A DNA stretch of 64,000 bases from an uncultured delta proteobacterium. GTDB lineage: Bacteria > Desulfobacterota > Binatia > JACPRU01. The notes beneath the pieces were generated by a model. That model worked only from the letters and a program-made list of their open reading frames with translations, was not told where the DNA came from and ran no database searches. This document shows, in pieces, positions 25,041 to 63,485 of the stretch. Location of the stretch: assembly GCA_963745025.1 (NCBI GenBank), contig CAVUWD010000010.1:32001-96000 (forward strand), read 5' to 3'. Each line of letters starts with the position of its first letter. The stretch's first letter is position 1. The position numbers were made by a program, and so were the translations under genes.

Positions 25041-25900
25041 CGTTTCAGGGGCGTCGCTTCCGACGGCCACGCGAGCCTCATCGGGCTTGGTGTCAGTTAT
25101 GGTGTCACTTGGCAGTGCGTTCAAACGCTGCACCACTTCGAGCTGGTCGTGTTTCGCTGGGGGACTAGAACGCCTCTGTCGTCCTCGCGTTGATCGTCGC
25201 CGTTGCCAGAGTCAACGGTCGCGGCGCTGACATCGATCGCGAGCCGAAGGACCGTGATGGTCTGTGGCATGCGCCGCAGTCGGTGGCCGCCAACGGCGCA
25301 TCGATCTGGATTTCGGTATTACGCGGAGAAGCTGGTCCAAACGCTTGTATCATCGGCATTTTCTCAACGTTTCCGAGGCGATGTAGAAAAGGGATTCCGA
25401 TGCTTCGAAGCTGGACGTCGCCGGTTCGCACCCCAGTCGCGCCTCAGAGCCGCTAGATCAGGCTCGCTGTTTCAGGAGCGTCGCTCCCGACGGCCATGCG
25501 AGCCTCATGGGCTTGGGCAGTCAAGGCGAGACGACAGAGCGTCGCGGCCGTCTCGTCATCCGCCGCCGCATGCCGCAAAAATCTTCATGGTCGAACCTCC
25601 CCCTGTGCCGCGGCGACTACCCCGGCCACCGCGAGCAGAGCCAAGAACGACAATGCACTCCATCCCGGGGTCGGTGGCGTGGCGTCGCAGTCGGTGGCCG
25701 CCAGCGGCGCATGGATCTGGATTTCGGTTTTGGCCGTCTCGCCATCCGCCGCCGCATGCCGCGCGGGCCAGGCGGCAAGGGCGAGGATTAGGGCGCTGAG
25801 CATTATAAGAATCCTCATGGTCGAACCTCTCGCCGTGCCGCGGCGACTACCCCGGCCACTGCGGGCAGAGCCAAAAACGGCAATACGCTCATCCGTCCCG
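25037..25900. repeat. Mosaic of diverged duplicated segments, including a decayed secreted-protein gene on the - strand (start 25818)
   Basis: Repeat pairs ~25037-25090/25463-25516, ~25276-25318/25687-25728, ~25547-25660/25733-25890; MRILIMLSALILALAAW...EIQIHAPLAATDC and a second EIQIDAPLAATDC. Confidence 0.7.
25402..25445 (+). repeat. Degenerate direct repeat of the tRNA-Gly 3' half (att-like site)
   Basis: AAGCTGGACGTCGCCGGTTCG identical to tRNA 24483-24503, followed by diverged CACCCCAGTCGC. Confidence 0.8.
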
Positions 25901-49100: not shown

Positions 49101-52100
49101 CGCGCGAGGACATCGGGCGGCGGCCGGAGGGTCGGATCGGAGTAGATGACGCGATTGGCGAGGCGCTGGAAGAGATGCGCCTCGTCGGTCCCCACACCGA
49201 GGTGGTGCAGCTGCACCTGAGCCTGCGTCCAAGCGAGCGTGACCACACGCTCGAACGCCGACGGGGCGGAGTACTTGTCGGCGAGGTCGAGGGCCTCGTC
49301 GCGCGTCGAGGCGACCACGGTCGAGAAGGTGACCCGAACGGCAACCCCGGATGGAATCCGGACGCGGCGCCGAAGGCTCACGATCGGGTCGAGGATCGAG
49401 CCAACCGTCCCGGACAATGGCCGTCCGTCGATCACGGACATCGGGGTCCGGATCCCACGCCCGTGCCCGAGAAAGCCTGCTCGGTCGGTTTCGAACTCGA
49501 CCTCCCCGACCGTCTCCCCCTCGACGGCCAGGACATGCGCGGCCCAAATCGGGGCTTCGCCTGCGAGGCGGGACCGGCGGGTCGCGAGAAGCGCCTTCGG
49601 CGAGGCGGCAAACTCCGTCTGGACGAAGAGATTCGAGAAGGCCGGATGAGCGGCGTCGGCGGCGGGCGGCGCGAGAACGATCTCGGCATAAGACGTGAGC
49701 TCGATCTCGCGCGTTCTGAGGCCGCTGTTCGTCAGCGATACGCGGCGCAGCTCCGCATCGTCCTCCGGGGAGACCACGACCTCGAGAGTGGACGTGATCG
49801 CGCCGTCGCGTCGGACGATCTGCGCGCGATCCTCGGAGTAGGCGACTTCATAGGACGTGGGCTCGGCCCCGCTCGGCTGGTATCCCGCGGACCAGACCTC
49901 GCCGCTCGCCACGTCGCGGAGGAAGACGTAGGTGCCCCAGCAGTCGCGCGTGACGTCCTCGCGCCAGCGCGTGACGGCGAGATCCCGCCAGCGGCTATAG
50001 CCCGAGCCCGCCGCCGTGATCATCACGGCGTAGCGCCCGTTCGAGAGGAGATGCGTGCGAGGCGTCGGGTCGTGCGGCGAGTGGAAGCGCCGCACGACCG
50101 GAGGGCCGACGTCGCTCACGCGACTCGCCGCTTCGACCTCCTCGGCGCGCGGTCGGGCGACGAGGGCATCGCGCGGCGTACGCTCCTGCAGCAGGAGCTC
50201 CGTCGCACGGACGATCGGCTCGGCGTGAAAGCGCGCCTGCATGACGGCGCCGGTGAGCACGTTCGCGAGCGCGACGAGCGTCATGCCCTGGTGGTGCGCC
50301 ATGTACGCGCGCACCACGGCCACGGAGGCTCCTTCGGGAACCCGGGTGGCGGTGTAATCGAGCGCCTCGTAGAAGCCGTACCGGCCGCTCCCGCCCGCCG
50401 CCTCGAGGCGCGCGAAGTTTTTCGCTGCGGCCTCCGGGTCGACCATCGCAGCCAGCGCCGTCGCATAGGGTGCGATGACGACGTCCTCGCTGAGACCGCG
50501 CTTCAGCCCGAGTCCCGGGACGCCGAAGCTCGAGTACTGATACGTTTGCTCGAGGTCGCGGGCATTGAAGGCGGACTCCGAGACCCCCCACGCCACTCCC
50601 CGCTTCCGCCCGTACTCGATCTGCCGCCGCACCACGAGCCGGCACGTGAGGTCGAAGAGGCTCGACGGCGGCGAGGAGAGCACGAGGCTCGGCATCAGGT
50701 ACTCGAACATCGAGCCCGACCACGAGACGAGCGCCGATCCCCGACCCACCGGCGTCAGTGCGCGGCCGAGCCGGAACCAGTGTGTGGACGGAACGTCGCC
50801 CTTGGCGATCGCGATGAAGCTCGTGAGCCGGGCCTCGGACGCTAGGAGATCGTAGCAGTTGGGATCGAGGCTGCCGTCGCTCACGCTGTAGCCGATCGCG
50901 AAGAGCTTTCGCGCCGGATCGAAGAGAAAACCGAACTCCATGCCGCGGAAGAGATCGTCGGCGAGCCGGGCGAGCGTCGAGAGGCGCCGGACGAGCGCGC
51001 CGGCCGCACGTTCGGGATCGCCGACCGGCGGCTCGGCCGCACCTGCAATCGCGGCCTCGCAGCGCTCGGCCATCGCGCCGAGGCTCGACATCGATCCCCC
51101 GGTCACGTCGGTCGCGCGCCACGCGGACGCGGATACGAGTTCGAGATCGCGCGCGTGGCTCGCGACGCAGGCGCGCGCGGCCTCCGCCCAGGCAAGGAGC
51201 TCGCGATCGGCCGTGTCGGCGCCGTCCCCGAGGAGAGCACGCGCGACATCGACCACAGTGTCCGCGCTCGCCTGGAGCTCTACCAAGCGAGCGGACCACT
51301 GGACAGGTGTCGGCGGAACGGACTCGAGCCCGGCAGCGAATGCGGTCAGCGCATCGTCCAGGTGCTTTCGGCTCACGAGCTCCGAACGACGCTGGTCGCC
51401 GAGCGCTTCGACCGAGGCCCGAGCGAGGAGCACTGCGTCGAGGATTCCCGCCAGCACCCGGGCGTCGAGGAGCGGCCGGTCGATCAGCTCGCGACACGCG
51501 TTCGACAACGCGAGCAGGTGCCCGGCGAGATTGCCGCTGTCGACCGACGAGACGTACTTCGGCTCGAGCGGGCGAAGATCGCGCGTCCCGTACCAGTTGT
51601 AAAAATGGCCTCGGAAACGCTCGAGGCGGGACATCGTGCCGAGCGTCGCCTCGAGCCGCTCGACCATGTCGACGGTCCCGATCCAGCCAAGATCGCGAGC
51701 GGTGACGGTGGACAGGAGAGCCATGCCGAGGTTCGTGGGCGAGGTACGGTGGGCAACGACCGGATTCGGCTCCTCCTGGAAATTGTCGGGAGGAAGCGCG
51801 TGATCTTCCGCACCGACGAAGGTCTCGAAGAAGCGCCATGTCCGACGCGCAATCAGCCGCAGGGTCCGCGCGTCTTCGGCCGAGAGCCACGGCGCACCCG
51901 CGCCGCGCGGCGGCGAGCTCAGCCAGAGCGCGACCGCGGGCGAAAGTGCCCAGAGAAACAGGAACGGCGTCGCGACGCCGGCGGCCGCGGGGCGTGCTCG
52001 AAGCACGATCACTGCCGCGATCCCTGCGAGCACCGGGGCGCTCGCGAGGCGCACGTACAGGCCTTTCAGCGTGAGATCGACACCGGATCGCGACCGCGCC

Positions 52101-54863
52101 GCCGGTACCCACTCGAGAAGCCGCCGGCGCGTCACGTAGAGCCGAGACGAGGCTCCGCACGACGGCATCGATCATCAACCACGCCTGGTGGGCGAGCATG
52201 GTGACGGCGACCGCGACGTGCGAGACGGCGAGGACGAGGTCCATCGCAACGGCGCGAGCGTGCATCCGCTTCGCGATACCGCGCCGGCGCGGCACGATCC
52301 CGAGGAAGAAGGGCAGAAGGGCCGGGATCGCGATGCTCGCGAGCACGAAGCTCGTCCAGAAGACGGGCAAAGCTCCGGGGAGCGTCCATCCGACGAGGAG
52401 TGTGAGGAAGGCCGCCGGGGCCGACAAGGAACGGCGCAGGTTGTCGAGAATCTTCCACATGCCGATCGACGGGATGCGGGTCCGCACGAGGCGGCCCTCT
52501 CCGTCGCGCGCGTGCCCGAGAACCCATGGCAGAAGCTGCCAGTCGCCACGCGCCCAGCGGTGCTGCCGCACCGCTGCGACCTCGTAGTGCGACGGAAACT
52601 CCTCGAAGAGCTCGACGTCGGTCACGAGGCCCGCTCGCGCGAAGATTCCTTCGAAGAGATCGTGACTGAGGAGCGCATTCTCCGGCACGCGGCCGGCGAG
52701 CGCGGACTCGAACGCGTCGACGTCGTAGATGCCCTTTCCCGTGTACGATCCTTCGTCAAAGAGATCTTGGTACACGTCGGAGACCGTCGACGCGTAGGGA
52801 TCGATGCCCGAGGGACCCGAGAAGATTCTCTGGAATAGCGACCCTTCGCTTCGCGTTGGCAGCGACGACGTCACTCGTGGCTGCAAGAGCCCGTAGCCCT
52901 CGATGACGCGCGACTCGACGGGATCGAACCGCGGGCGATTCAGCGGATGCGCCATCGTTCCGACGAGGCGAACGGCGGTGCCGCGCGTGAGGCGCGTGTC
53001 GGCGTCGAGCGTGACGACGTAGCGGACGTCAGGAGGCACCGCCGGCCCGCCATCGGCGAATGGCACGAACGTCGTGTCCGCTCCGCCGCGGAGAAGCCGG
53101 TTCAGCTCCTGGAGCTTGCCGCGCTTGCGCTCCCAACCCATCCACTTTCGCTCGCTCTCGTTCCAGACGCGGCGTCGGTGGAGAAGAAAGAATCGCCGTC
53201 CGCCCCCCGGGACTGCACCATGGCGGGCGTTCAACCGCGCGATCCCCGCTGTCGCCGCGGCGAGGAGGTCGTCATCGCCGGGCGCATGCTCGACGCTTGA
53301 GTCCGTCCAGTCGGAAAGCAGCCCGAAGTGCAGCGCGCCGTCCGGATTGGCGAGATAGTGCACCTCGAGTCGGTCGATCAGCTCGTGGATCTCATCCTCG
53401 CTCGTGAGAAGGGACGGCATGACGACGATTGTCCGGAGGTTCGCTGGGACGCCGTCCCGAAGCTCGAGCTTCGGCAGCGAGCGAGGGCCGATGAACTCGG
53501 TCACCGCGCGGTTCACGAGCGCCACGGCGAGGTCGGACGCCGGAAAGAGGAGGAGGAGTGCGAGGGGGATTGCCCACGCCAAGCCGATGCCCGCCGCACC
53601 GAGTTGCCAGAGCGGAAACGCGACCAGCACGCCGCTCGCGACGGCGAGGGTGAGCACATAGCCGGGGTTCGCCGTGGTGACGTACGCGCGAAGCAGCCGG
53701 CGCACCGGAGAGATGCGGCAGCCGAGATCCGCCTCGAAGCCGGTCCTCCCCTCCGCGATCAGGTAGTAGCCGGGGTCGCCCTTACGATTTTCCGGGGCGC
53801 CGTCGGCGCCTCGACCCGGCCGCTGGGCGCGCCGCACGGCCTCCGCGCTCACCTCGAGCTCCGAGCGCCCGGACCCCCGCGCGAGCTCCTCGATCGCGTG
53901 GCGGTAGCGGTCGCGCGTCTGGAAGTCCATCGCGGAGAACTCCGCGCCACCGCGCAGGGTCTCGTCGACTAGGCTGACGCTTTCGAAGAAGCTCTCCCAG
54001 TCGAACACCGACATGAACCGCATGCTGGTGATGACGTTTCGCACGGTGACGTTCGCCGCCCCCTGGCTTTGCAGCTCGAGGTCCACGAGCTTGTCCACGG
54101 TCGTCCCCTGCTCCGCGAGGCGGTCGTCGAGCCACCGCAGCGCCGGTATCACTGCGGGATCCTGCTCGCGGAGCCGTTGCGCAAGTTGAACCGCGAACGC
54201 GCGTGTGAGCGGGATACCCTCGAAGCGCCGAAGAGCGGTGGCGGGCGAGAGCTGAGTGCTTCCAGGCGCACCGAGCAGACCGTCCGCGAGCGCGTCGGCC
54301 TCTTCGCGGGCGGCTCGAGACCGAACGATCCGGTCCGCGAGGCGCCGCAGGTTTTCGACCAGGACGATACGGAGCGCGATCGCGATTGCCCAGAGCTCCC
54401 CGATCGTCAGCGGCGCGACCCGCTGGTACGCGCGGACGAAGCGGCGGAGCATCTCAGGATCGAAGCGGCTATCGGTGTGGGCCACGAACGCCCACGCGAT
54501 TCCGAGAACGCGCGGGAATCCCTCCAGATGTCCTTCGGAGAGCTTCGGCAGCTCTCGGTAGAAGCTCGGCGGCAAGTCGTCGTGGATCTCGCGAATCTGC
54601 TCCTCGACGATGTGAAAGTTGTCGACGAGCCATTCGGCGGCCGGCGTGATCGCTCGTTCTTCGCGGATCGCGTGGGCGATGGCCCGGTACGACTCGAAGA
54701 GGACGCGGGCGTTTTCGTCGACCCGTGGCGCGACCCTCCGACCGCGTCGGCGGCCGGTGGCGACCCGCTGCGCCACGGCAAGGCTTTCCGCGTGCTGCTC
54801 GAGACGCTCGATACTGAAGAGCTCTGCTCGGATGGCTTCTTCGCGGTCGGCGAGCACACTCAT
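46181..54863 (-). CDS. ndvB: Cyclic beta-1,2-glucan synthase/phosphorylase (Cgs/NdvB/ChvB, ~2890 aa), one apparent +1 frameshift near 52145
   Basis: [95 protein letters not shown]. Confidence 0.93.
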
Positions 54864-54990
54864 CGACGACGGACCACCGGACACGGATCGCCAGAATGCG
54901 CTCGCGGAACATCGCACCTCAACCGTTGCTGCGTATACGGACGGACATCTCGGGCAGTGTAGGGAGTTTCAAAAAGTAAAGTTGTCTCGA

Positions 54991-55203
54991 TTACGCGATG
55001 AGCCGGTGTTCGCGCGCAGACTCGCGCTGGATGACAAGCGTAGCAATGTCTCCCGGCTCTAACGGGGAACACGGGCTTTGCATCCACATGAACGGGATCA
55101 AAATCTTCCGGCCTCGGATGACGGCCAATGCGCCCAGATCGGTGACGGGTCGGATCTGTATTTTCTCGATCGGGACCACGTCGTCGAGATGGCTCTCATG
55201 CAT
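54991..55203 (-). CDS. Small hypothetical protein (~70 aa)
   Basis: Compact ORF MHESHLDDVVPIEKIQIRPVTDLG... with globular composition, divergent from the RRM gene. Confidence 0.45.
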   Translation of the reverse strand: MHESHLDDVVPIEKIQIRPVTDLGALAVIRGRKILIPFMWMQSPCSPLEPGDIATLVIQRESAREHRLIA

Positions 55204-55469
55204 CGCGCCCCCCCTGGTCAAGGGTCCGCGAAGCGAGTTCCCGTGGACAGGCAGAAAGGCTTGTGAACGAGTGATCCCGCTGAACGGGCCGGTAAAAAGC
55301 CTATCGTACTCCCGTTATGTTGGAGTTGATAGCGTCACGTCACTTGGGCATCTTCCCGGACGCCCACATACGTAAGCAAAACTGAACCGCCGGTAGCGGC
55401 TCCGAGCGGGAAGCTTGTGTCGTTCGGTCAGCGAGCTCGCAAGTCATGATTGCGTTCGGGAGCAAAGGA

Positions 55470-55485
55470 TGGCACGGTAATGGCA
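55470..55485 (+). promoter_or_regulatory. Putative sigma54 (-24/-12) promoter
   Basis: TGGCACGGTAATGGCA: GG-N10-GC spacing with an exact TGGCACG -24 element. Confidence 0.65.
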
Positions 55486-55597
55486 CTAAGCCTGACTGTC
55501 CGGCGCGAGAAACCCTCCGGTTGTACCGGTTCACGCAAATCCTCCCGCTCGTCACTCTCAGGAAGTCTCGGCAACGACAGCAGGTGTCGGTTGCCGC
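55486..55597 (+). ncRNA. Candidate structured cis-regulatory leader RNA, copy A (5' of RRM gene)
   Basis: Three blocks shared with 60426-60533; 3' hairpin CGGCAAC-GACA-GCAGG-TGTC-G-GTTGCCG. Confidence 0.5.
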
Positions 55598-55651
55598 TCG
55601 CCAACTTACCTGAGGCCCGCCGCCAAGGCGGGTTACGAGGAGATCAGCATC

Positions 55652-55942
55652 GTGGGAAAGAAACTCTACATCGGCAATCTCGGCTACGAAGTCACATCCA
55701 AGGATCTGGAGGCGCTGTTCGCCCAGGCTGGCGCTTGCCAATCCGCGACGGTCATCATGGACCGCGATAGCGGCCAGTCTCGGGGGTTCGGCTTCGTGGA
55801 AATGAGCTCCGACGCCGACGCTCAGAAGGCGATCCAGCAGTTCAACGGTCAGGATCTCAAAGGCCGCGCCCTCAAGGTGAACGAGGCGATCGATCGCGGA
55901 AACAATCGCGGTGGAGGCGGGTATTCCGGGAATCGCCGCTAG
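55652..55942 (+). CDS. RRM (RNP-1) RNA-binding protein with Gly-rich tail
   Basis: RNP2 LYIGNL, RNP1 RGFGFVEM, GRALKVNEA; GAGGAG RBS. Confidence 0.95.
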   Translation: MGKKLYIGNLGYEVTSKDLEALFAQAGACQSATVIMDRDSGQSRGFGFVEMSSDADAQKAIQQFNGQDLKGRALKVNEAIDRGNNRGGGGYSGNRR

Positions 55943-56011
55943 GGCGGGCTTGCCCTGTGAGGCGACTGCGATCGTCGCAGGGATGGTCGTCGCCAACGAA
56001 CGGAGGTAACC

Positions 56012-56152
56012 ATGGGCGACAAATCACCCAAGTCGAAACAGCGCAGCCAACGGCAGAAGAACGCCGCCAAAGCGCAAGGCGCGGCCACGGCGAAGTCCAA
56101 GCAAGACAGCCATAGCCACGCTCTTCCGATTTCGGCGCAGGGCAGGAGGTAG
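56012..56152 (+). CDS. 46-aa small basic protein (not in ORF track)
   Basis: GGAGG RBS then MGDKSPKSKQRSQRQKNAAKAQGAATAKSKQDSHSHALPISAQGRR. Confidence 0.7.
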   Translation: MGDKSPKSKQRSQRQKNAAKAQGAATAKSKQDSHSHALPISAQGRR

Positions 56153-56203
56153 CTCTCGGGATTCGATGCTGCCGCGGCGCCTCGGCCATGACGAGAGGCA
56201 GCG

Positions 56204-56473
56204 ATGAAGACCATCAGCAACAAGACCCAAAGACCCCTCAGTGTCCCATTGCCGCGCGGCAAGACCTTGCATCTCGGTCCCGGAAAGACCGGACAGATCG
56301 CCTCGAACGCCGCCGATCATCCGGAACTCAAGAAGCTAGTCGAAGCAGGCAAAATCGAGATCCTCGGCGAGGGTTCTGGATCCGCCGAGGGAGCCGGGAG
56401 CGACAAGGCGCGGGGAACCTGGATGCCCGGCCACGCTTCGGGCGGCCGTAGTCGCCGCAGCGGCGACCGCTAG
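56204..56473 (+). CDS. Small conserved-looking hypothetical protein
   Basis: GAGAGG RBS; MKTISNKTQRPLSVPLPRGKTLHLGPGKTGQI...LKKLVEAGKIEI. Confidence 0.7.
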   Translation: MKTISNKTQRPLSVPLPRGKTLHLGPGKTGQIASNAADHPELKKLVEAGKIEILGEGSGSAEGAGSDKARGTWMPGHASGGRSRRSGDR

Positions 56474-56729
56474 TTCCTACGGTTCTGGGGCCTCACTTTG
56501 CTCCGAACTGACACAGAAGGAGCTGCGCCTGCACCGGTGCGCGCGACTTCGTCGATTTTCTTCTCGATGGCCCGGTTGTGCTGAAGAGGCGCCGGCAGCG
56601 GTAGGCGGCGCTTCACCTGCTCGGCGACACGCGCCCAGGGGTCGCGCCCAAGGGTCGCTTGACGGGCGTGGGTGACCCCGGTCTAGTCTCTGGACCGAAG
56701 AGGCGCGGTTGCTCTCGCTCCGCGGAACG

Positions 56730-58049
56730 ATGATTCGATCCGAGCTCGCGATCATTTTGGGCCTGATCCTGCTGAACGGGCTCTTCGCCGGCGCGGAGAT
56801 CGCGCTGCTGACGCTCCGAAAGACGCGGCTTCAGCTGCTCCTCGAGCGGCGGTCGGCAGCGGCACGGGCGGTCGAAGCGCTGCGCAACGAGCCCGAGCGG
56901 TTTCTCGCCACGGTGCAGATCGGGATCACGGTCATCGGGGCCAGCACCGCCGCTTTCGGGGGCGCCTCGCTCGGCCGCGATCTCGGCGAGAGGCTCTCCA
57001 ACCTGCCCGTGATCGGCCCCTTCGGCCACGACATCGCGCTCGCCTGCGTAATCGTTCTGGTGTCCTATTTCTCACTCGTGCTCGGCGAGCTCGTCCCGAA
57101 GTCGATCGCTTTGCGCCATCCGGAGCGTTACGCGCTGATCGCGGGCCGTCCGATCCTCTGGATCTCTTTCGTCGCAAAGCCGCTCGTGTGGTTCTTGACG
57201 GGGAGCTCGAACCTCGTGCTGCGCCCGTTCGGCGACCAGACGTCGTTCGGCGAGTCGCGCCTTTCGCGCGAAGAGCTCCGGCAGCTCGTCGAGGAGGCGG
57301 CAAAGGCGGGAGCCCTCGACCCGCGGAGCGGTGAAATCGCTTCCCGTGCGTTGGAGTTCGGGCAGCTCGCGGCCCGCGACATCATGGTGCCGAGAAGCCA
57401 GATCGATGCGGTCGCGCGCAACGCCTCGCCGGAAGAGGTGAAGACGCTGCTGCTCGAGAGCGGACACTCGCGGATGCCGGTCTACGAGGCAACGCTCGAC
57501 AACATCGTCGGCTACATCAGCGCCAAGGACTTCCTCGCGCTTGCCTGGGAGAGGCAGCTGATCGTGCTGGAGGATCTGATTCGGCCGACCCATTTCGTTC
57601 CCGACAGCGTATCCGCTCCACAACTGCTGAAGGAGCTGCAAAGTCGCCATGCCTCGCTCGCCATCATCGTCAACGAGCACGGGGGAATCGTCGGGCTGGT
57701 GACGCTCGAGGACCTGATCGAGGAGCTCGTCGGCGAGATCTTCACCGAGCACGAGGTTCCCGAGGAGCTCGTGCGGCGCGAGCCCGACGGCAGCGCGCTC
57801 ATCCGCGGCAACGCCCGGATCCGGGAAGTGAACCGCGAGCTGTCGCTCGACCTGCCCGAGGGCGACAGCTCGACGATCGCGGGCCTCTGCACGGACATCG
57901 CGGGTCGGATCCCGCAGCGCGGCACGCGCCTCGAGGTCGCGGACGGCTGTTGGATCGAGGTCGTCGAGGCGTCGCCCCGCCTCGTTCGGCTCGTGCGCCT
58001 GATGCCGGGCCGTGACCGCACGGCGTCCCCCGAGAGCCCGGCGTCTTAG
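56730..58049 (+). CDS. Hemolysin-family CNNM/CBS/CorC transporter-associated protein
   Basis: NGLFAGAEIAL, FLATVQIGIT, GELVPKSIA, GHSRMPVY, GLVTLEDLIEELVGEI. Confidence 0.92.
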   Translation: MIRSELAIILGLILLNGLFAGAEIALLTLRKTRLQLLLERRSAAARAVEALRNEPERFLATVQIGITVIGASTAAFGGASLGRDLGERLSNLPVIGPFGHDIALACVIVLVSYFSLVLGELVPKSIALRHPERYALIAGRPILWISFVAKPLVWFLTGSSNLVLRPFGDQTSFGESRLSREELRQLVEEAAKAGALDPRSGEIASRALEFGQLAARDIMVPRSQIDAVARNASPEEVKTLLLESGHSRMPVYEATLDNIVGYISAKDFLALAWERQLIVLEDLIRPTHFVPDSVSAPQLLKELQSRHASLAIIVNEHGGIVGLVTLEDLIEELVGEIFTEHEVPEELVRREPDGSALIRGNARIREVNRELSLDLPEGDSSTIAGLCTDIAGRIPQRGTRLEVADGCWIEVVEASPRLVRLVRLMPGRDRTASPESPAS

Positions 58050-58078
58050 AATCGGCCGGTCGTTCGACCGGCCGATTC
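58049..58078. terminator. 13-bp hairpin directly after the stop codon (possible terminator, no U-tract)
   Basis: GAATCGGCCGGTC-GTTC-GACCGGCCGATTC. Confidence 0.45.
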
Positions 58079-58440
58079 GGTGAGCGCCGTCGACTCGCCC
58101 CCGATCCGGATTCCTTCACGCCGCGAGATCGCGTGGCGGATCCGGGGGCCCGCGGGGTTCGTCGAGTGTCTGTGGTCGACACCGCACGGCGGGTGGACAA
58201 GTAAGTCGTGGTCGCCAACGGAGAGGTCGGAGCCGTGCGACGCCGCTCGATCGCGAGTTTCGTCTCGTTGTTTTTCGCGCCCGCGGAAAGCCCGATCGAT
58301 CCCGCGGCAGGCGTCCGGGAGCATCGAAGTCGAATCCGACGCGCGCACGCTCATCGTCCTCGGCTGGATCGTCATCCTTCTCGTCGTCTTCGACCGTGGT
58401 AGCGTTGGCACCGCGCAAACGTGCCGGTGTAGAGTAGCCC

Positions 58441-59892
58441 ATGCCCCGGATCGCCGTACTCGGCCTCGACTCTGCTCCGCCGTCGTTCTTCTTCCACCGC
58501 TATCGGAAGGAGATGCCGAACCTGGAGCGACTGATGCGGACCGGCCTGGTCGCCCACCTGGAGTCGACGAACCCGCCGATCACCGTGCCCGCTTGGACCT
58601 CGATGATGTCGAGCAAGGATCCGGGGCAGCTCGGCTTCTACGGGTTCCGCAACCGCAAGGACCACTCTTACGACGGCTACCGGTTCGCCAACGGTTCGCT
58701 GATTCGCGAGCCTCTGGTGTGGGACATCCTCGGACGGCACGGCAAGCGCTCGATCCTGCTCGGCGTGCCGCAGACCTATCCGCCGCGTCCGATCGAGGGC
58801 GAGATGGTCACCTGCTTCCTCACGCCGTCGACCGAGAGTCAGTATACGTACCCCACCTCCCTCAAGGCGGAGGTCGAGCGGGTGACCGGCGGGTACGTCC
58901 TCGACGTTGACGATTTCCGCACGCCCGACAAGGGCGCGCTACTCGGCCGCATCTACGAAAAGACCCGCAAGCACTGGACCCTCGCCAAGCACATGCTCCG
59001 TACCCGGCCGTGGGACTTCTTCATGATCGTGGAGATGGGCGTCGATCGGATTCATCATGGGTTCTGGAGCTACTGCGATCCCGAGCATCACAAGTACGTT
59101 CCCGGCAATCCGTGGGAGCACGCGCTGCGCGACTACTACCGCTACCTCGACGGGGAAATCGGGGAGGTGTTGGAGCTGCTCGGAAAAGACACGATCGTCC
59201 TGGTGGTCTCCGACCACGGATCGAAGAAGATGGACGGGGGTATCTGTATCAACGAATGGCTGATCAACGGCGGCTATCTCAATCTGCTCGAGCGCCCGGC
59301 CGGGCCGACGCCGATCGGCAAGGCGAAGATCGACTGGAAGCACACCCGGGCCTGGGGCGACGGCGGCTATTACGGAAGGCTCTTCATGAACGTCCGTGGG
59401 CGTGAGCCCGAAGGGACGATCGACCCCGCGGACTACGAGCAGGTGAGACGCGAGATCGCAGCCGGAATCGAGGCGATCGCAGATCCGTCCGGACGCAACA
59501 TCGGGTCGAAGGCCTATCGGCCCGAGGACATCTATCGCGCGACCCGTGGTGTGCCGCCCGATCTGATCGTCTATTTCGGAGACCTCGACTGGCGCTCGGT
59601 CGGCTCGGTCGGCATGGGCTCGATCCACACGTTCGAGAACGACACAGGCCCGGACGAATCGAACCACGACTGGCACGGGATCTTCGTGATGAACGACCCG
59701 CGCCACCCCCGACCCGAGCCGGACTTGGACGATCTCCCGGTCTTCCGGATCTACGACGTGGCGCCGACCGTGTTGGCGGCCTTTGGGCTATCCGTGCCCG
59801 AAGACATGATCGGTCGCCCGCGTGTCGAGCCGCCCCGACCGCAGTCGCGCCCCGGCTTCTGGAAGCGGATCCTGCCGTTCGGTGATCCTTGA
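58441..59892 (+). CDS. Alkaline phosphatase superfamily protein (type I phosphodiesterase/nucleotide pyrophosphatase-like)
   Basis: VLGLDSA, PPITVPAWTSM, DRIHHGFW, VVSDHG, NHDWHGIF. Confidence 0.88.
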   Translation: MPRIAVLGLDSAPPSFFFHRYRKEMPNLERLMRTGLVAHLESTNPPITVPAWTSMMSSKDPGQLGFYGFRNRKDHSYDGYRFANGSLIREPLVWDILGRHGKRSILLGVPQTYPPRPIEGEMVTCFLTPSTESQYTYPTSLKAEVERVTGGYVLDVDDFRTPDKGALLGRIYEKTRKHWTLAKHMLRTRPWDFFMIVEMGVDRIHHGFWSYCDPEHHKYVPGNPWEHALRDYYRYLDGEIGEVLELLGKDTIVLVVSDHGSKKMDGGICINEWLINGGYLNLLERPAGPTPIGKAKIDWKHTRAWGDGGYYGRLFMNVRGREPEGTIDPADYEQVRREIAAGIEAIADPSGRNIGSKAYRPEDIYRATRGVPPDLIVYFGDLDWRSVGSVGMGSIHTFENDTGPDESNHDWHGIFVMNDPRHPRPEPDLDDLPVFRIYDVAPTVLAAFGLSVPEDMIGRPRVEPPRPQSRPGFWKRILPFGDP

Positions 59893-59975
59893 TCTTTAGG
59901 GGCGTTGGAGAACAGCGGTTTTGAATCGCACCCGAACCGAGGCGCGGTGGACCCGCGGGCAGGCGGGCGTTCGAA

Positions 59976-60269
59976 TTACTTGGCGTGCTTGCTCTTCGCT
60001 GCGGCCTTTTCGGCTCGGCAGTCTTTGACGGTGACCGCGTCCACGGTCACGCCGGAGACCGTTTGGCCGTTGATGATCGGTTTCACGCAGTCATGGCCGA
60101 GTCGTTTGCCCTGTGTGTGCTCGCCCTTTACGAAGCCTGCGGCCTTGCAAGCGTCCTCGATTTTGCGGCACGCAGTGGCATCCCCACTCGCCGCGGTTGC
60201 GAGATCTACAACCGCAACTCCCACCAATCCGCTCAAACCGAAAGCAAGAGCAGCCAGTCTCGTTCTCAT
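59976..60269 (-). CDS. Small secreted protein with four Cys
   Basis: Signal peptide; ACRKIEDACKAAGF...DCVKPII...VKDC; AAGGGAG RBS. Confidence 0.7.
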   Translation of the reverse strand: MRTRLAALAFGLSGLVGVAVVDLATAASGDATACRKIEDACKAAGFVKGEHTQGKRLGHDCVKPIINGQTVSGVTVDAVTVKDCRAEKAAAKSKHAK

Positions 60270-60296
60270 AGATCGTCTCCCTTGACTCAAAACACA

Positions 60297-60360
60297 TGAC
60301 CGATGACATCGTCGCGATCCAGCAGTTGCTCTATCGGTATTGCACCGCCGTGGACAGGCA
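60297..60360 (+). pseudogene. N-terminal relic of a SnoaL/NTF2-like gene
   Basis: MTDDIVAIQQLLYRYCTAVDR, then similarity is lost. Confidence 0.45.
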
Positions 60361-60425
60361 TGTGCTCGCCACCACCCGTTCTACCAAGATTGCCCCCAAA
60401 CGTGATCAGTGATAGACGTAGTTCG

Positions 60426-60533
60426 CTAATCCTGACTGTCCGGCGCGAGAACCACGCTCTGCGACTCCGGTAGTCACTTTCCCGCACCCTACTCTCAGGA
60501 AGTCTCGGCAACGGTAACAGGTGTCGTTGCCGC
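60426..60533 (+). ncRNA. Candidate structured leader RNA, copy B
   Basis: CCTGACTGTCCGGCGCGAGAA and ACTCTCAGGAAGTCTCGGCAACG identical to copy A; hairpin retained through G-U pairs. Confidence 0.5.
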
Positions 60534-60708
60534 AAGGGCCTAGCCTGTAGGCGGTCGTTTCAGCGATCGCTGAAAGGGGGCGCCGTAGGCAGGATAGGCC
60601 TTCGGATGGAGAACCAGGCGGGGCGCTTTTCCCGTAGAAGCGCCACGTCGAGCGAGCAGTAGTTCTCACCATCCGGGAGTCGAGCCAGCTCGGAGCTCAG
60701 GAGATTCG

Positions 60709-61248
60709 ATGCCTTTTCCGCAGGGACCTGTTTCGAAGTTGCGAGCCACTCGAGCAGCACCCGCACAGGCGCGTCACGGTGGTCCTGTCTTCGGCGTCGG
60801 TATGCGCGCGTTCGTGAGCGACGCCGGGAGCCTCAAGGGGCTGGTGGCGCTGAACGATGCCAGCGGCAAGGTGGCTGTGGGTCATCTGGCCGACGGCGCC
60901 GAAGTGGAGATTCTCGCTTGGATACCGCGAAGGGCGGCGACCGTTTATTGCGTTCAGTCTACCGAGAACCATCTCGCAGGCTGGCTCGGGGTCGCGAATC
61001 TCCGAGCGGGCCCAGGCCCGGCGATCATCGGCAGCCCAATGCCGGCGCCGACGCCGCCGGCCTGGATCTCTCTCCTGGCGCCGAGCGCCAAACCGCCGCC
61101 GGCGCATCCGCGGAAAGCGCTCGGGGGGTCTCATTCGGAGGGTCTAACCGGCGCGCAGCGAAGAAGCGAGGAACCGTCGGATGCATTACACCCTGCTCGG
61201 GACGAGGATTCCGGCAAGAGGCCGTACGGAGGACGGGCACACTCATGA
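60709..61248 (+). CDS. Hypothetical protein, possibly SH3-like beta domain plus Pro-rich tail
   Basis: CAGGAG RBS; HLADGAEVEILAW...YCVQS...GWLGVANLR. Confidence 0.6.
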   Translation: MPFPQGPVSKLRATRAAPAQARHGGPVFGVGMRAFVSDAGSLKGLVALNDASGKVAVGHLADGAEVEILAWIPRRAATVYCVQSTENHLAGWLGVANLRAGPGPAIIGSPMPAPTPPAWISLLAPSAKPPPAHPRKALGGSHSEGLTGAQRRSEEPSDALHPARDEDSGKRPYGGRAHS

Positions 61249-62522: not shown

Positions 62523-62861
62523 TCACCCGCGCTCGCCCGACAACAGCTCTTCCGCGCGCATGTCGAGCTCCGCCTTTGCCAGCAGGGCCTTGTCGAGCAA
62601 GAGCGTCTCCAATGCGGCGAGCCACTGCCGGTAGTAGATCGTGGCCGGGCTCGCGGACGGGTCGTTGGGAGGTGCGGCCACCGCCTCGATCAGGCGGTCG
62701 CGGAATTCGTCCCAGTGAAAGAGCCCCTTCTGGTGGAGCCCGACCACCATGCCGAAGGCACGGCTCTGCCAGGGCGCGTCGAACACGAGCTCGCCGTTCT
62801 TGCGGGGCACCGCGGCGGCGCCGCTCAAGTCCGGTGGTTGAACCGCGGCATCGGTCGACAT
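62523..62861 (-). CDS. Nitrile hydratase accessory (activator) protein
   Basis: PRKNGELVFDAPWQSRAFG, WDEFRDRLI, YYRQWLAALE. Confidence 0.9.
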   Translation of the reverse strand: MSTDAAVQPPDLSGAAAVPRKNGELVFDAPWQSRAFGMVVGLHQKGLFHWDEFRDRLIEAVAAPPNDPSASPATIYYRQWLAALETLLLDKALLAKAELDMRAEELLSGERG

Positions 62862-62870
62862 CGGACGAAC

Positions 62871-63485
62871 CTACCGCGGCGCCTCGATGGTGCCCACGCC
62901 GATCATCGAGTCGCGCGTGACGAGGCTTGCGAGCTCCTCCTCGGTCATCCCCTCGGTGCCCTTCGGCCGCTGCGGCAATACGAGGTAGCGGATCTCCGAG
63001 CTCGAGTCCCAGACGCGAACCTCGACCGACGGATCGAGCACCACGCCGAACTCGGCGAGCACGGTGCGGGGCTCCTTCACCACGCGTGAGCGGTAGGGCA
63101 GGCTCTTGTACCAGGCCGGAGGCAGCCCGAGCACCGGCCACGGGTAGCAGGAGCAGAGCGTGCACACCACCACGTTATGAATCTTCGGCGTGTTCTCGAC
63201 GGCCACCATGTGCTCGCCCTGAAGCCCGCCGATGCCGAGCTCGCCGAGCGCCGCCGTCGCGTTCTCGAGGAGCCGCTTCTTGAAATCCGGGTCCGTCCAA
63301 GCGCGCGCCACGGCCTTCGCGCCGTTGAGCGGTCCGATGTCCTTCTCATAAGCCGCCGCGACCTGATCGATCGCGTCGGAGGAGACCAACCCCTTCTCGA
63401 TCAGCAGCGATTCGATGGCGCGGGCCCGCGCCTCGACTGGCGAAAGCGGCTCGGGGTGATGACCGCCGTCATGTTCTCCGCTCAT
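62871..63485 (-). CDS. nthA: Cobalt-type nitrile hydratase alpha subunit
   Basis: Metal-binding VCTLCSCY (Thr/Tyr variant = Co type), [15 protein letters not shown]. Confidence 0.96.

Follow-up and report, generated by a model that had tools for sequence, protein, structure and literature searches.

Two unrelated genes in a 64,000-nucleotide (nt) stretch of DNA from an uncultured bacterium of the class Binatia (contig CAVUWD010000010.1, bases 32001-96000; the whole stretch is here called the window) are preceded by the same leader sequence, which raises the question of what this sequence is and what it does there. An initial annotation of the window proposed a new cis-regulatory RNA, possibly bound by the RRM-type RNA-binding protein encoded behind one of the copies or acting as a thermometer or switch. 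Our analysis indicates that the motif is very probably a conserved cis-acting structured leader. It is a new structured leader and a candidate Rfam family, confined to part of the Binatia among the genomes searched.

Both copies are on the plus strand, copy A at 55491-55613 ahead of the RRM gene and copy B at 60431-60547 ahead of a gene for a protein of 179 amino acids (aa) that belongs to no known family. The identical blocks reported at the outset were confirmed as well. A 21-mer, CCTGACTGTCCGGCGCGAGAA, occupies 55491-55511 in A and 60431-60451 in B, and a 23-mer, ACTCTCAGGAAGTCTCGGCAACG, is found at 55554-55576 and 60491-60513. Each block has two matches in the window, also when two mismatches are allowed, and neither occurred in 100 dinucleotide shuffles. 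The 23-mer is followed by CAGGTGTCG(G)TTGCCGC in both copies. The stretch between the two blocks, 42 nt long in A and 39 nt in B, aligns poorly. The conserved unit is longer than first noted and extends 5' to a TTGnnn-N17-TGnTA element and 3' to a CCUG(A) box. When the window was searched with a covariance model of the motif, copies A and B were found with E values of 1e-34 and 5e-38, respectively, and the next best match had an E value of 0.003.

Comparison with known RNA families gave no match. With the 4227 models of Rfam 15, a cmscan search of the whole window at gathering scores found a tRNA as the sole match, and a search of 55000-61000 at E≤10 returned seven weak matches, none overlapping copy A or B. 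In the loci of five relatives the motif stayed unmatched at E≤1. The claim of a new RNA thus held against Rfam even at permissive thresholds. The cspA thermoregulator RF01766 (gathering score 78 bits) did not match the motif in the window or in the five relatives' loci; the same model does fire in this setting, scoring 87.4 bits on a cspA gene next to a motif-bearing RRM gene (locus L185, genome G106). The Chlorobi-RRM model RF01697 likewise had no match to copies A and B at E≤10. A description of the motif was not found in the literature on Binatia or Binatota RNA and on RRM-linked RNA motifs, a search whose coverage left out most subscription journals.

Homologues were plentiful in class genomes and metagenomes. 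The window's own genome has four copies, namely A, B, one on contig C18 and a divergent one on contig C11. Two covariance models were used for the searches, R1 built from 15 copies (alignment A2) and R2 built from 98 matches. Their matches, with E values from 1e-19 to 1e-38 overall and from 1e-19 to 1e-36 for R1, occurred in six of the eight genomes of the family, which constitutes the whole order, and each matching genome has two to three strong copies. For the class and the phylum samples of genomes were searched, so that absence means not found in these genomes; the class tallies include one unpublished genome (G086), which has no motif match and on which no claim depends. R1 matched 17 of the 151 class genomes, and R2 matched 24 of 151 at E≤1e-3, of which 17 were below E 1e-6. 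At least three of the seven weak matches lie directly upstream of RRM genes (G122, G083 and G050) and hence are real, so the prevalence in the class is underestimated. The spread over the class families was patchy: matches were present in 5/7 genomes of f1, 2/2 of f18, 1/2 of f19, 1/3 of f5, 6/17 of f10 and 4/8 of f11, and no matches were found in f7 (0/18) and f9 (0/17). None of the 146 sampled genomes from other classes of the phylum matched.

Pattern searches extended this set. An exact-pattern scan of a genome collection gave 16 loci, 15 of which were judged genuine. Their records are titled 'Candidatus Binatia bacterium', 'Deltaproteobacteria bacterium' or the like, and one Margulisiibacteriota; the NCBI taxonomy places Binatia within Candidatus Binatota. 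A second pattern gave 68 loci in metagenomes, about 60 of them genuine, from soil and sediment. Several matches were discarded. One locus of the exact-pattern scan (L087) was set aside as a chance match by eye and by the model, eight metagenome loci (L113, L123, L125, L144, L145, L150, L157 and L159) were judged to be chance matches with no P1 helix (described below), no promoter and a coding context, and weak model matches in coding DNA (G092, G150 and G126) were also set aside. The single Margulisiibacteriota title belongs to L089, a locus with the full motif and an RRM gene, near-identical to other Binatia copies, on a metagenome-assembled genome that may be mis-binned or mislabelled.

The fold of the motif was derived from these copies. 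In copy A the core domain spans 55491-55562 on the plus strand, as delineated by the covariance-model match, RNAalifold on two alignments and pair counts. It is closed by helix P1, in which CCUGA (55491-55495) pairs with UCAGG (55558-55562), and in its interior the invariant strands GGCGCGAGA (55502-55510) and UCCCGC (55543-55548) flank a variable hairpin, CCGGU..ACCGG. The core of copy B covers 60431-60499 on the same strand, with P1 formed by CCUGA (60431-60435) and UCAGG (60495-60499). Next comes hairpin P4, which is CGGCAACGACA-GCAGG-UGUCGGUUGCCG at 55569-55596 in copy A and CGGCAACGGUA-ACAGG-UGUCGUUGCCG at 60506-60532 in copy B, with a conserved CAGG loop. This 3' hairpin had been thought to be retained despite sequence changes, and it is, via G-U wobbles. 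The pairing of CGAGA with TCTCG suggested in the initial annotation was not supported: UCUCG is limited to the close family and its changes (UGUCG, UCCG) are uncompensated.

An independent alignment of 36 diverse copies was made with MAFFT, fitted to no model, and folded with RNAalifold. The resulting fold consists of P1 (CUGA:UCAG), a GU:AC step, then GG:CC, GCG:CGC and GA:UC steps parted by single conserved mismatches (C.A and A.C), a variable tip and the P4 hairpin; the invariant central helix is GGCGCGAGA/UCCCGCACC. Compensatory double changes were present in 9 of the 19 pairs. Those in the core were U-A to C-G, A-U to G-C and C-G to G-C, and a further P1 variant, CGGA:UCCG, was seen in G106. 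A larger alignment of 88 distinct copies (A3), which is model-fitted and biased towards the fitted structure, had double changes in 13 of 23 pairs against 7.1 in shuffles, and none of 500 shuffles reached 13. In A3 91.8% of the cells were paired, compared to 31-42% with the partners slid, and most of its covariation is held by P4, with double changes in 9 of 10 pairs. The compensatory changes thus lend support to all three helices (P1, the central one and P4).

Two registers of the central helix were both 99% paired, and pair counts do not separate them since the columns are invariant. RNAalifold's first register was replaced by that from the diverse 36-copy alignment. Two features favour the latter: the rare substitutions, A or G for C3, C for A7 and U, C or G for A100, coincide with its mismatches, and one copy has a C-G to G-C swap in it. 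The tip is deletable, two copies having a spacer of 4 nt, and P4 is missing in one lineage; most lineages have this second hairpin, with an NRGG loop. Because tip and P4 are dispensable, the core of about 70 nt is the universal part of the element.

The structural data bear on the possibility that the conserved blocks act in the DNA, as the half-sites of an operator or promoter-proximal transcription factor site. The two invariant blocks do form an imperfect inverted repeat and always occur with a promoter, but a distance of 4-39 nt between them is ill-suited to a dimeric DNA binder, and the G-U/U-G wobbles and compensatory changes, with strong covariation in P4, are strand-specific RNA features. 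We consider a DNA-level element very unlikely.

The conserved sequence upstream of the motif resembles a promoter. In an alignment of 86 distinct upstream regions the -35 element had TTG in 86/86, the spacer was 17 nt in 83/86, the TG extension was present in 83/86, and the first and second -10 positions were T in 85/86 and A in 86/86, giving the consensus TTGYRC-N17-TGnTA; these counts are somewhat favoured by the search, which took the best-scoring candidate per sequence. For copy A the promoter-like element is at 55450-55478 on the plus strand (-35 TTGCGT at 55450-55455, 17-nt spacer, extended -10 TGgCAcggT at 55470-55478) and deviates by a C instead of a T at -10 position 1. For copy B it is at 60390-60418, also on the plus strand (-35 TTGCCC at 60390-60395, 17-nt spacer, extended -10 TGaTAgacg at 60410-60418). 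In 50 of the 86 upstream regions the end of the -10 box and CUGA are 12-13 nt apart, and the RNA is accordingly predicted to begin 5-6 nt ahead of P1, near 55485 in copy A and near 60425 in copy B. Predicted 5' untranslated regions (UTRs) would then measure 125-213 nt over 55 RRM leaders; that of A has 167 nt. A strict consensus sigma-70 scan found no promoter. The motif-promoter pattern is rare in the rest of the own genome, where its strict form had one match with 2.5 expected, and a looser form had 3 with 14.7 expected.

Of the 88 distinct copies, 80 are followed on their own strand by a recognised gene, and the motif sits between promoter and start codon on the strand of the gene, the position generic to a cis-regulatory leader. 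Promoter and leader form a module that is kept together. These regularities make it most improbable that the motif is an element like a miniature inverted-repeat transposable element or another repeat, a chance duplication without a regulatory role, or a small-protein coding sequence on either strand. The presence of several copies per genome ahead of unrelated genes would agree with a repeat and the minus-strand open frames that span both window copies with a coding function, but the two to five copies in a genome always have the same orientation and the same distance to promoter and gene, none lies in a coding region, and orthologous positions are kept across families. With its two conserved blocks and free spacer, this block-wise conservation is unlike uniform decay, as was noted from the window. 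Coding on either strand was rejected on the spacer lengths, which fall in all three classes modulo 3 (32, 16 and 38 of 86) so that the blocks do not stay in a constant frame to each other; at this G+C content open frames carry no information, 82-85 of 86 being open in some frame. Copy B in particular is probably not debris, a possibility raised at the start, because its downstream gene family carries the motif in at least six distinct loci.

Transcription was followed in RNA-library contigs, an analysis that concerns leader A. Twenty RNA-library runs from 16 studies contain part of 55430-55950. Contigs from four RNA libraries (four studies) join leader A to the RRM coding sequence, covering 55498-55863, 55500-55674, 55504-55737 and 55508-55780, with 1-5 differing letters each. 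They begin 13-23 nt past the predicted start with no loose ends there; contigs do not reveal a true start, and DNA carry-over is possible. The regions 55250-55487 and 55896-55997 have no RNA-contig cover, which was not used as evidence. The contigs give a weak hint that leader A is part of the RRM mRNA. The remainder of this leader, read from sequence and fold, is a stretch at 55616-55651 on the plus strand with a hairpin, CCCGCC-GCCAA-GGCGGG (55616-55632), and the Shine-Dalgarno sequence GAGGAG (55637-55642). A loose end in X4 resembles a motif copy of another lineage.

The gene behind copy A (55652-55942, plus strand, GTG start) encodes an RRM-type RNA-binding protein of 96 aa, with Pfam RRM_1 at E 7.6e-22 and a score of 103.9 bits (cut-off 100) for the NCBIfam family NF058537, 'RNA-binding regulator'. 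The 179-aa product of the gene behind copy B (60709-61248, plus strand), MPFPQG...GGPVFGVGMRAFV..., matched no Pfam or NCBIfam family. Its atlas neighbours include SH3 clusters at a score of 0.92, so a bacterial SH3-like domain is a lead only. Relatives of this gene carry the motif upstream in at least six distinct loci.

Among the 88 distinct copies the downstream gene encodes an RRM protein in 58, a B12-binding radical-SAM enzyme in 9, a 63-67-aa protein of no family starting MVSxSEL... in 6, a member of the copy-B gene family in 6 and a zinc-ribbon protein in 1, with 8 other or unresolved cases. The radical-SAM enzyme matches Pfam Radical_SAM (9e-23) and B12-binding (3e-20), and its nearest NCBIfam families, BchE and HpnJ, scored below cut-off. 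The eight other copies comprise two before a DEAD-type gene, two before NdvB-like genes (G004), one before a gene of an unknown family and three at cut-off loci; the product at L094 has a DEAD domain (3.7e-20). Additional copies that were found later lie before NdvB-like genes in a second family (G067 and G131) and before RRM genes. The motif precedes genes other than RRM in nine genomes, and in eight of these it is also present on an RRM gene, a co-occurrence only. The small regulon that had been proposed is thus borne out as a set of motif-bearing genes centred on RRM and including unrelated ones.

This gene set, together with the hairpin, would also agree with a processing or stability determinant that is read by a ribonuclease and sets the mRNA half-life without the RRM protein, as the leaders of pnp, rnc and rne are known to do. 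RNase III could act on the imperfect duplex of about 20 positions, or RNase E through 5'-end sensing. The long imperfect duplex only a few nt from the 5' end, its conserved internal mismatches, a regulon rich in RNA-metabolism genes and the lack of the motif on most RRM genes all fit this explanation. There is no indication of a cleavage site, however, the RNA contigs run unbroken across the 3' half of the hairpin and P4, and the conserved identities of the mismatch nucleotides fit a sequence-specific binder equally well. A ribonuclease determinant therefore seems unlikely to us.

Some neighbourhoods of motif-bearing genes were conspicuous. In G123 (L167, contig C4) a motif-bearing RRM gene is followed after about 190 nt by an open reading frame (ORF) with helicase motif I, AxxGxGKT, and a Q-motif-like start, and read by eye the locus looks like an RRM and DEAD-box operon. 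At L185 (G106, contig C3, 652-1005) the cspA gene with the Rfam thermoregulator stands directly downstream of the motif-bearing RRM gene, which makes this a compact cold-shock locus. The window itself has an NdvB-like gene at 49995-54917 on the minus strand, divergent from copy A and without a motif of its own; relatives of this gene bear the motif in two other families. Its ORF of 1640 aa reads as a normal protein for about the first 880 residues and then as Arg/Pro/Gly-rich text of a wrong-frame type, so a frameshift or assembly indel near the middle is likely. The B12-radical-SAM gene at the fourth copy of the own genome (C11, about 570220-571700, L064) is split over two frames of 102 aa and 490 aa; in relatives it is a single ORF of about 490 aa, which points to an assembly indel or a broken gene. 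Just 3' of the RRM gene, at 56012-56152 on the plus strand, there is a very basic ORF of 46 aa (MGDKSPKSKQRSQRQK...), and contigs from three RNA-library runs match 56011-56044 as well. G007 (L063) has an ORF with the same start. There, about 250 nt upstream of the small basic ORF, lies a partial motif (contig C246, 2282-2373, E 4e-6) that has only the 3' half with the P4 hairpin and may be a decayed copy.

The proposal of alternative folds rests on a box 3' of P4, which is CCUGA at 55609-55613 in copy A and CCUG at 60544-60547 in copy B, both on the plus strand. A CCUG(A) box at this place occurs in 25 of the 88 distinct copies, those of the window's family and close metagenome relatives. It could pair with UCAGG, the 3' strand of P1, as an alternative to P1, or with the CAGG loop of P4. 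The minimum-energy fold of the whole leader A has the UCAGG:CCUGA alternative, extended by AAGU:ACUU. In some copies the box abuts or overlaps the Shine-Dalgarno sequence, e.g. CCUGAGAGGA in G004, and one copy has a matching change (CUUUCAGG with CCUGAAG). Together with the predicted folds these features are no more than suggestive of a switch between P1 and alternative P1. A pseudoknot of the P4 loop CAGG with the 3' CCUG was rejected as the reason for the conserved loop, because CAGG is also kept in 24 distinct copies without the tail.

The rival pairing for the 3' strand of P1 in one lineage would suit a riboswitch, in which a stress-signalling small molecule or ion is bound in a pocket of the invariant internal-loop nucleotides and the pairing of P1 governs a platform downstream. 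The design is aptamer-like: the closing helix P1 covaries, the nucleotides of the junction are invariant, and the tip varies and can even be absent. Yet no metabolic pathway or transporter unites the genes served (RRM, DEAD-box, B12-radical-SAM, NdvB-like and small unknown proteins), an intrinsic terminator was not found after the motif, and the region from the core to the ribosome-binding site is conserved neither in length nor in sequence across lineages. We regard a riboswitch as improbable.

RRM-1 proteins, DEAD-box helicases and CspA form the classic cold-shock set of RNA-remodelling proteins, and cspA-type genes are controlled through long structured leaders. The explanation that we prefer is a new cis-regulatory leader of a cold-shock-like regulon with feedback by an RRM protein, which as a whole has in our estimate an even chance of being correct. 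Transcription would start about 5-6 nt before the motif from the conserved extended -10 promoter. The first 70 nt or so would fold into an imperfect long hairpin, followed in most lineages by P4, and the element would act in cis and post-transcriptionally. Members of the regulon would include one RRM paralogue acting as an RNA chaperone, a DEAD-box helicase, an enzyme of the B12-radical-SAM type, glucan synthases resembling NdvB, and small proteins. The 5'-proximal hairpin is best envisaged as a 'cold-box'-like docking site for a trans-acting factor, and the simplest such factor would be the RRM protein itself, an arrangement that would yield feedback as well as a regulon. Within the window's family, pairing of UCAGG to the downstream CCUGA box beside the ribosome-binding site may compete with P1, in which case translation or mRNA stability would be determined by binding or by temperature. 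The comparisons establish the conservation, position, strand, fold and gene association of the motif; its cis-regulatory role, the cold-shock setting, the binder and the switch are inferred.

A more specific form of the regulatory-leader explanation is that the core of about 70 nt, with GGCGCGAGA/UCCCGCACC and two conserved A.C mismatches, is the specific operator of one RRM-1 protein, which would repress or activate its own mRNA and the cold-shock regulon (helicase, lipid/glucan enzymes, small proteins) via the P1/alternative-P1 switch. We put this forward tentatively and consider it rather doubtful. If true, this would be the first case in which the RNA target of a bacterial RRM protein is defined in structure and extends over a regulon. 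Although single-RRM proteins are widespread in bacteria, very little is known of the RNAs that they target or of how they are themselves regulated. The motif offers a concrete RNA element of about 70-140 nt with a testable fold, linked to one RRM paralogue and also present on other genes, among them that of a DEAD-box helicase, in a soil and sediment lineage that has not been cultured. Both molecules, the RNA and the 96-aa protein, are accessible by in vitro synthesis, so no culture of the organism would be needed to examine binding, switching and the influence of temperature. The element also flags unknown small proteins as probable members of a stress regulon.

Several observations weigh against the cold-shock leader with RRM feedback and the structure on which it builds. 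Besides the bias of the model-fitted alignment, the invariant strands were fixed by the search patterns and are unable to show covariation, and a G98-to-U change in two copies is uncompensated. The folding energy of the leaders is unremarkable, with z values of -0.69 for A and -1.68 for B. RRM_1 genes occur in 146 of the 151 class genomes, 1-8 in each, and most have no motif; in the own genome it is on one of three RRM paralogues. Because most RRM genes, two of three here, lack the motif, it belongs to one RRM paralogue and is not a site through which RRM genes in general are autoregulated. In G003, a genome that is 74% complete, two other genes bear the motif and the sole RRM gene detected does not. 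The switch boxes are invariant and present in only 25 of the 88 copies. There was no thermometer signal, the Shine-Dalgarno accessibility over 55 leaders being flat from 5 to 37 °C in a purely thermodynamic prediction (mean unpaired fraction 0.36, 0.36, 0.37 and 0.38 at 5, 15, 25 and 37 °C by partition-function folding). Finally, cold induction is read from gene content only.

Four known systems come closest to the motif. The enterobacterial cspA 5' UTR with its 'cold box' (RF01766) is a leader of about 160 nt with a strong promoter and post-transcriptional control, and the element is common to several cold-shock genes. The Binatia motif is similar in being a conserved structured element at the very 5' end of the equally long leader, likewise about 160 nt, of a small RNA-chaperone gene, and in being common to several genes. 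It differs in having no match to the RF01766 model and in serving an RRM protein instead of a cold-shock-domain protein. Furthermore, temperature-dependent refolding belongs to the cspA leader, whereas the predicted Shine-Dalgarno accessibility in the Binatia leaders is flat. The cyanobacterial rbp genes such as rbpA1 are cold-regulated RRM genes whose 5' UTR participates in regulation; there is no Rfam model for these leaders, and the likeness is by description only. In Bacteroides, the RRM-1 proteins RbpA, RbpB and RbpC are described in a preprint (PMC13370968) as cold-shock proteins with 5' UTRs of 122-155 nt and feedback through these UTRs. They are single-RRM proteins of the same NCBIfam type with similar leader lengths. 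In contrast, the preprint defines no RNA motif (PMC13370968), whereas the Binatia element, from another phylum, is a covarying structure also found on non-RRM genes. The Chlorobi-RRM motif (RF01697), discovered through comparative genomics in one bacterial lineage, is a candidate cis-regulatory RNA located ahead of RRM genes (Weinberg et al. 2010, PMC2864571). The Binatia motif is distinct from it in lineage, in the absence of a cmscan match at E≤10 and in occurring also ahead of unrelated genes.

Other features of the window lie apart from the motif. At 62523-63485 on the minus strand two adjacent ORFs encode proteins of 112 aa and 204 aa, the larger with a noted stretch of 10 residues; we take them to resemble the beta and alpha subunits of nitrile hydratase. 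Direct repeats at 25271-25890 consist of 84-nt and 50-nt units with 87-92% identity. Between 41471 and 43885 there are three pairs of blocks with 88-91% identity at a distance of about 2.2 kb (41471/43666, 41588/43794 and 41628/43835), which are probably paralogous genes.

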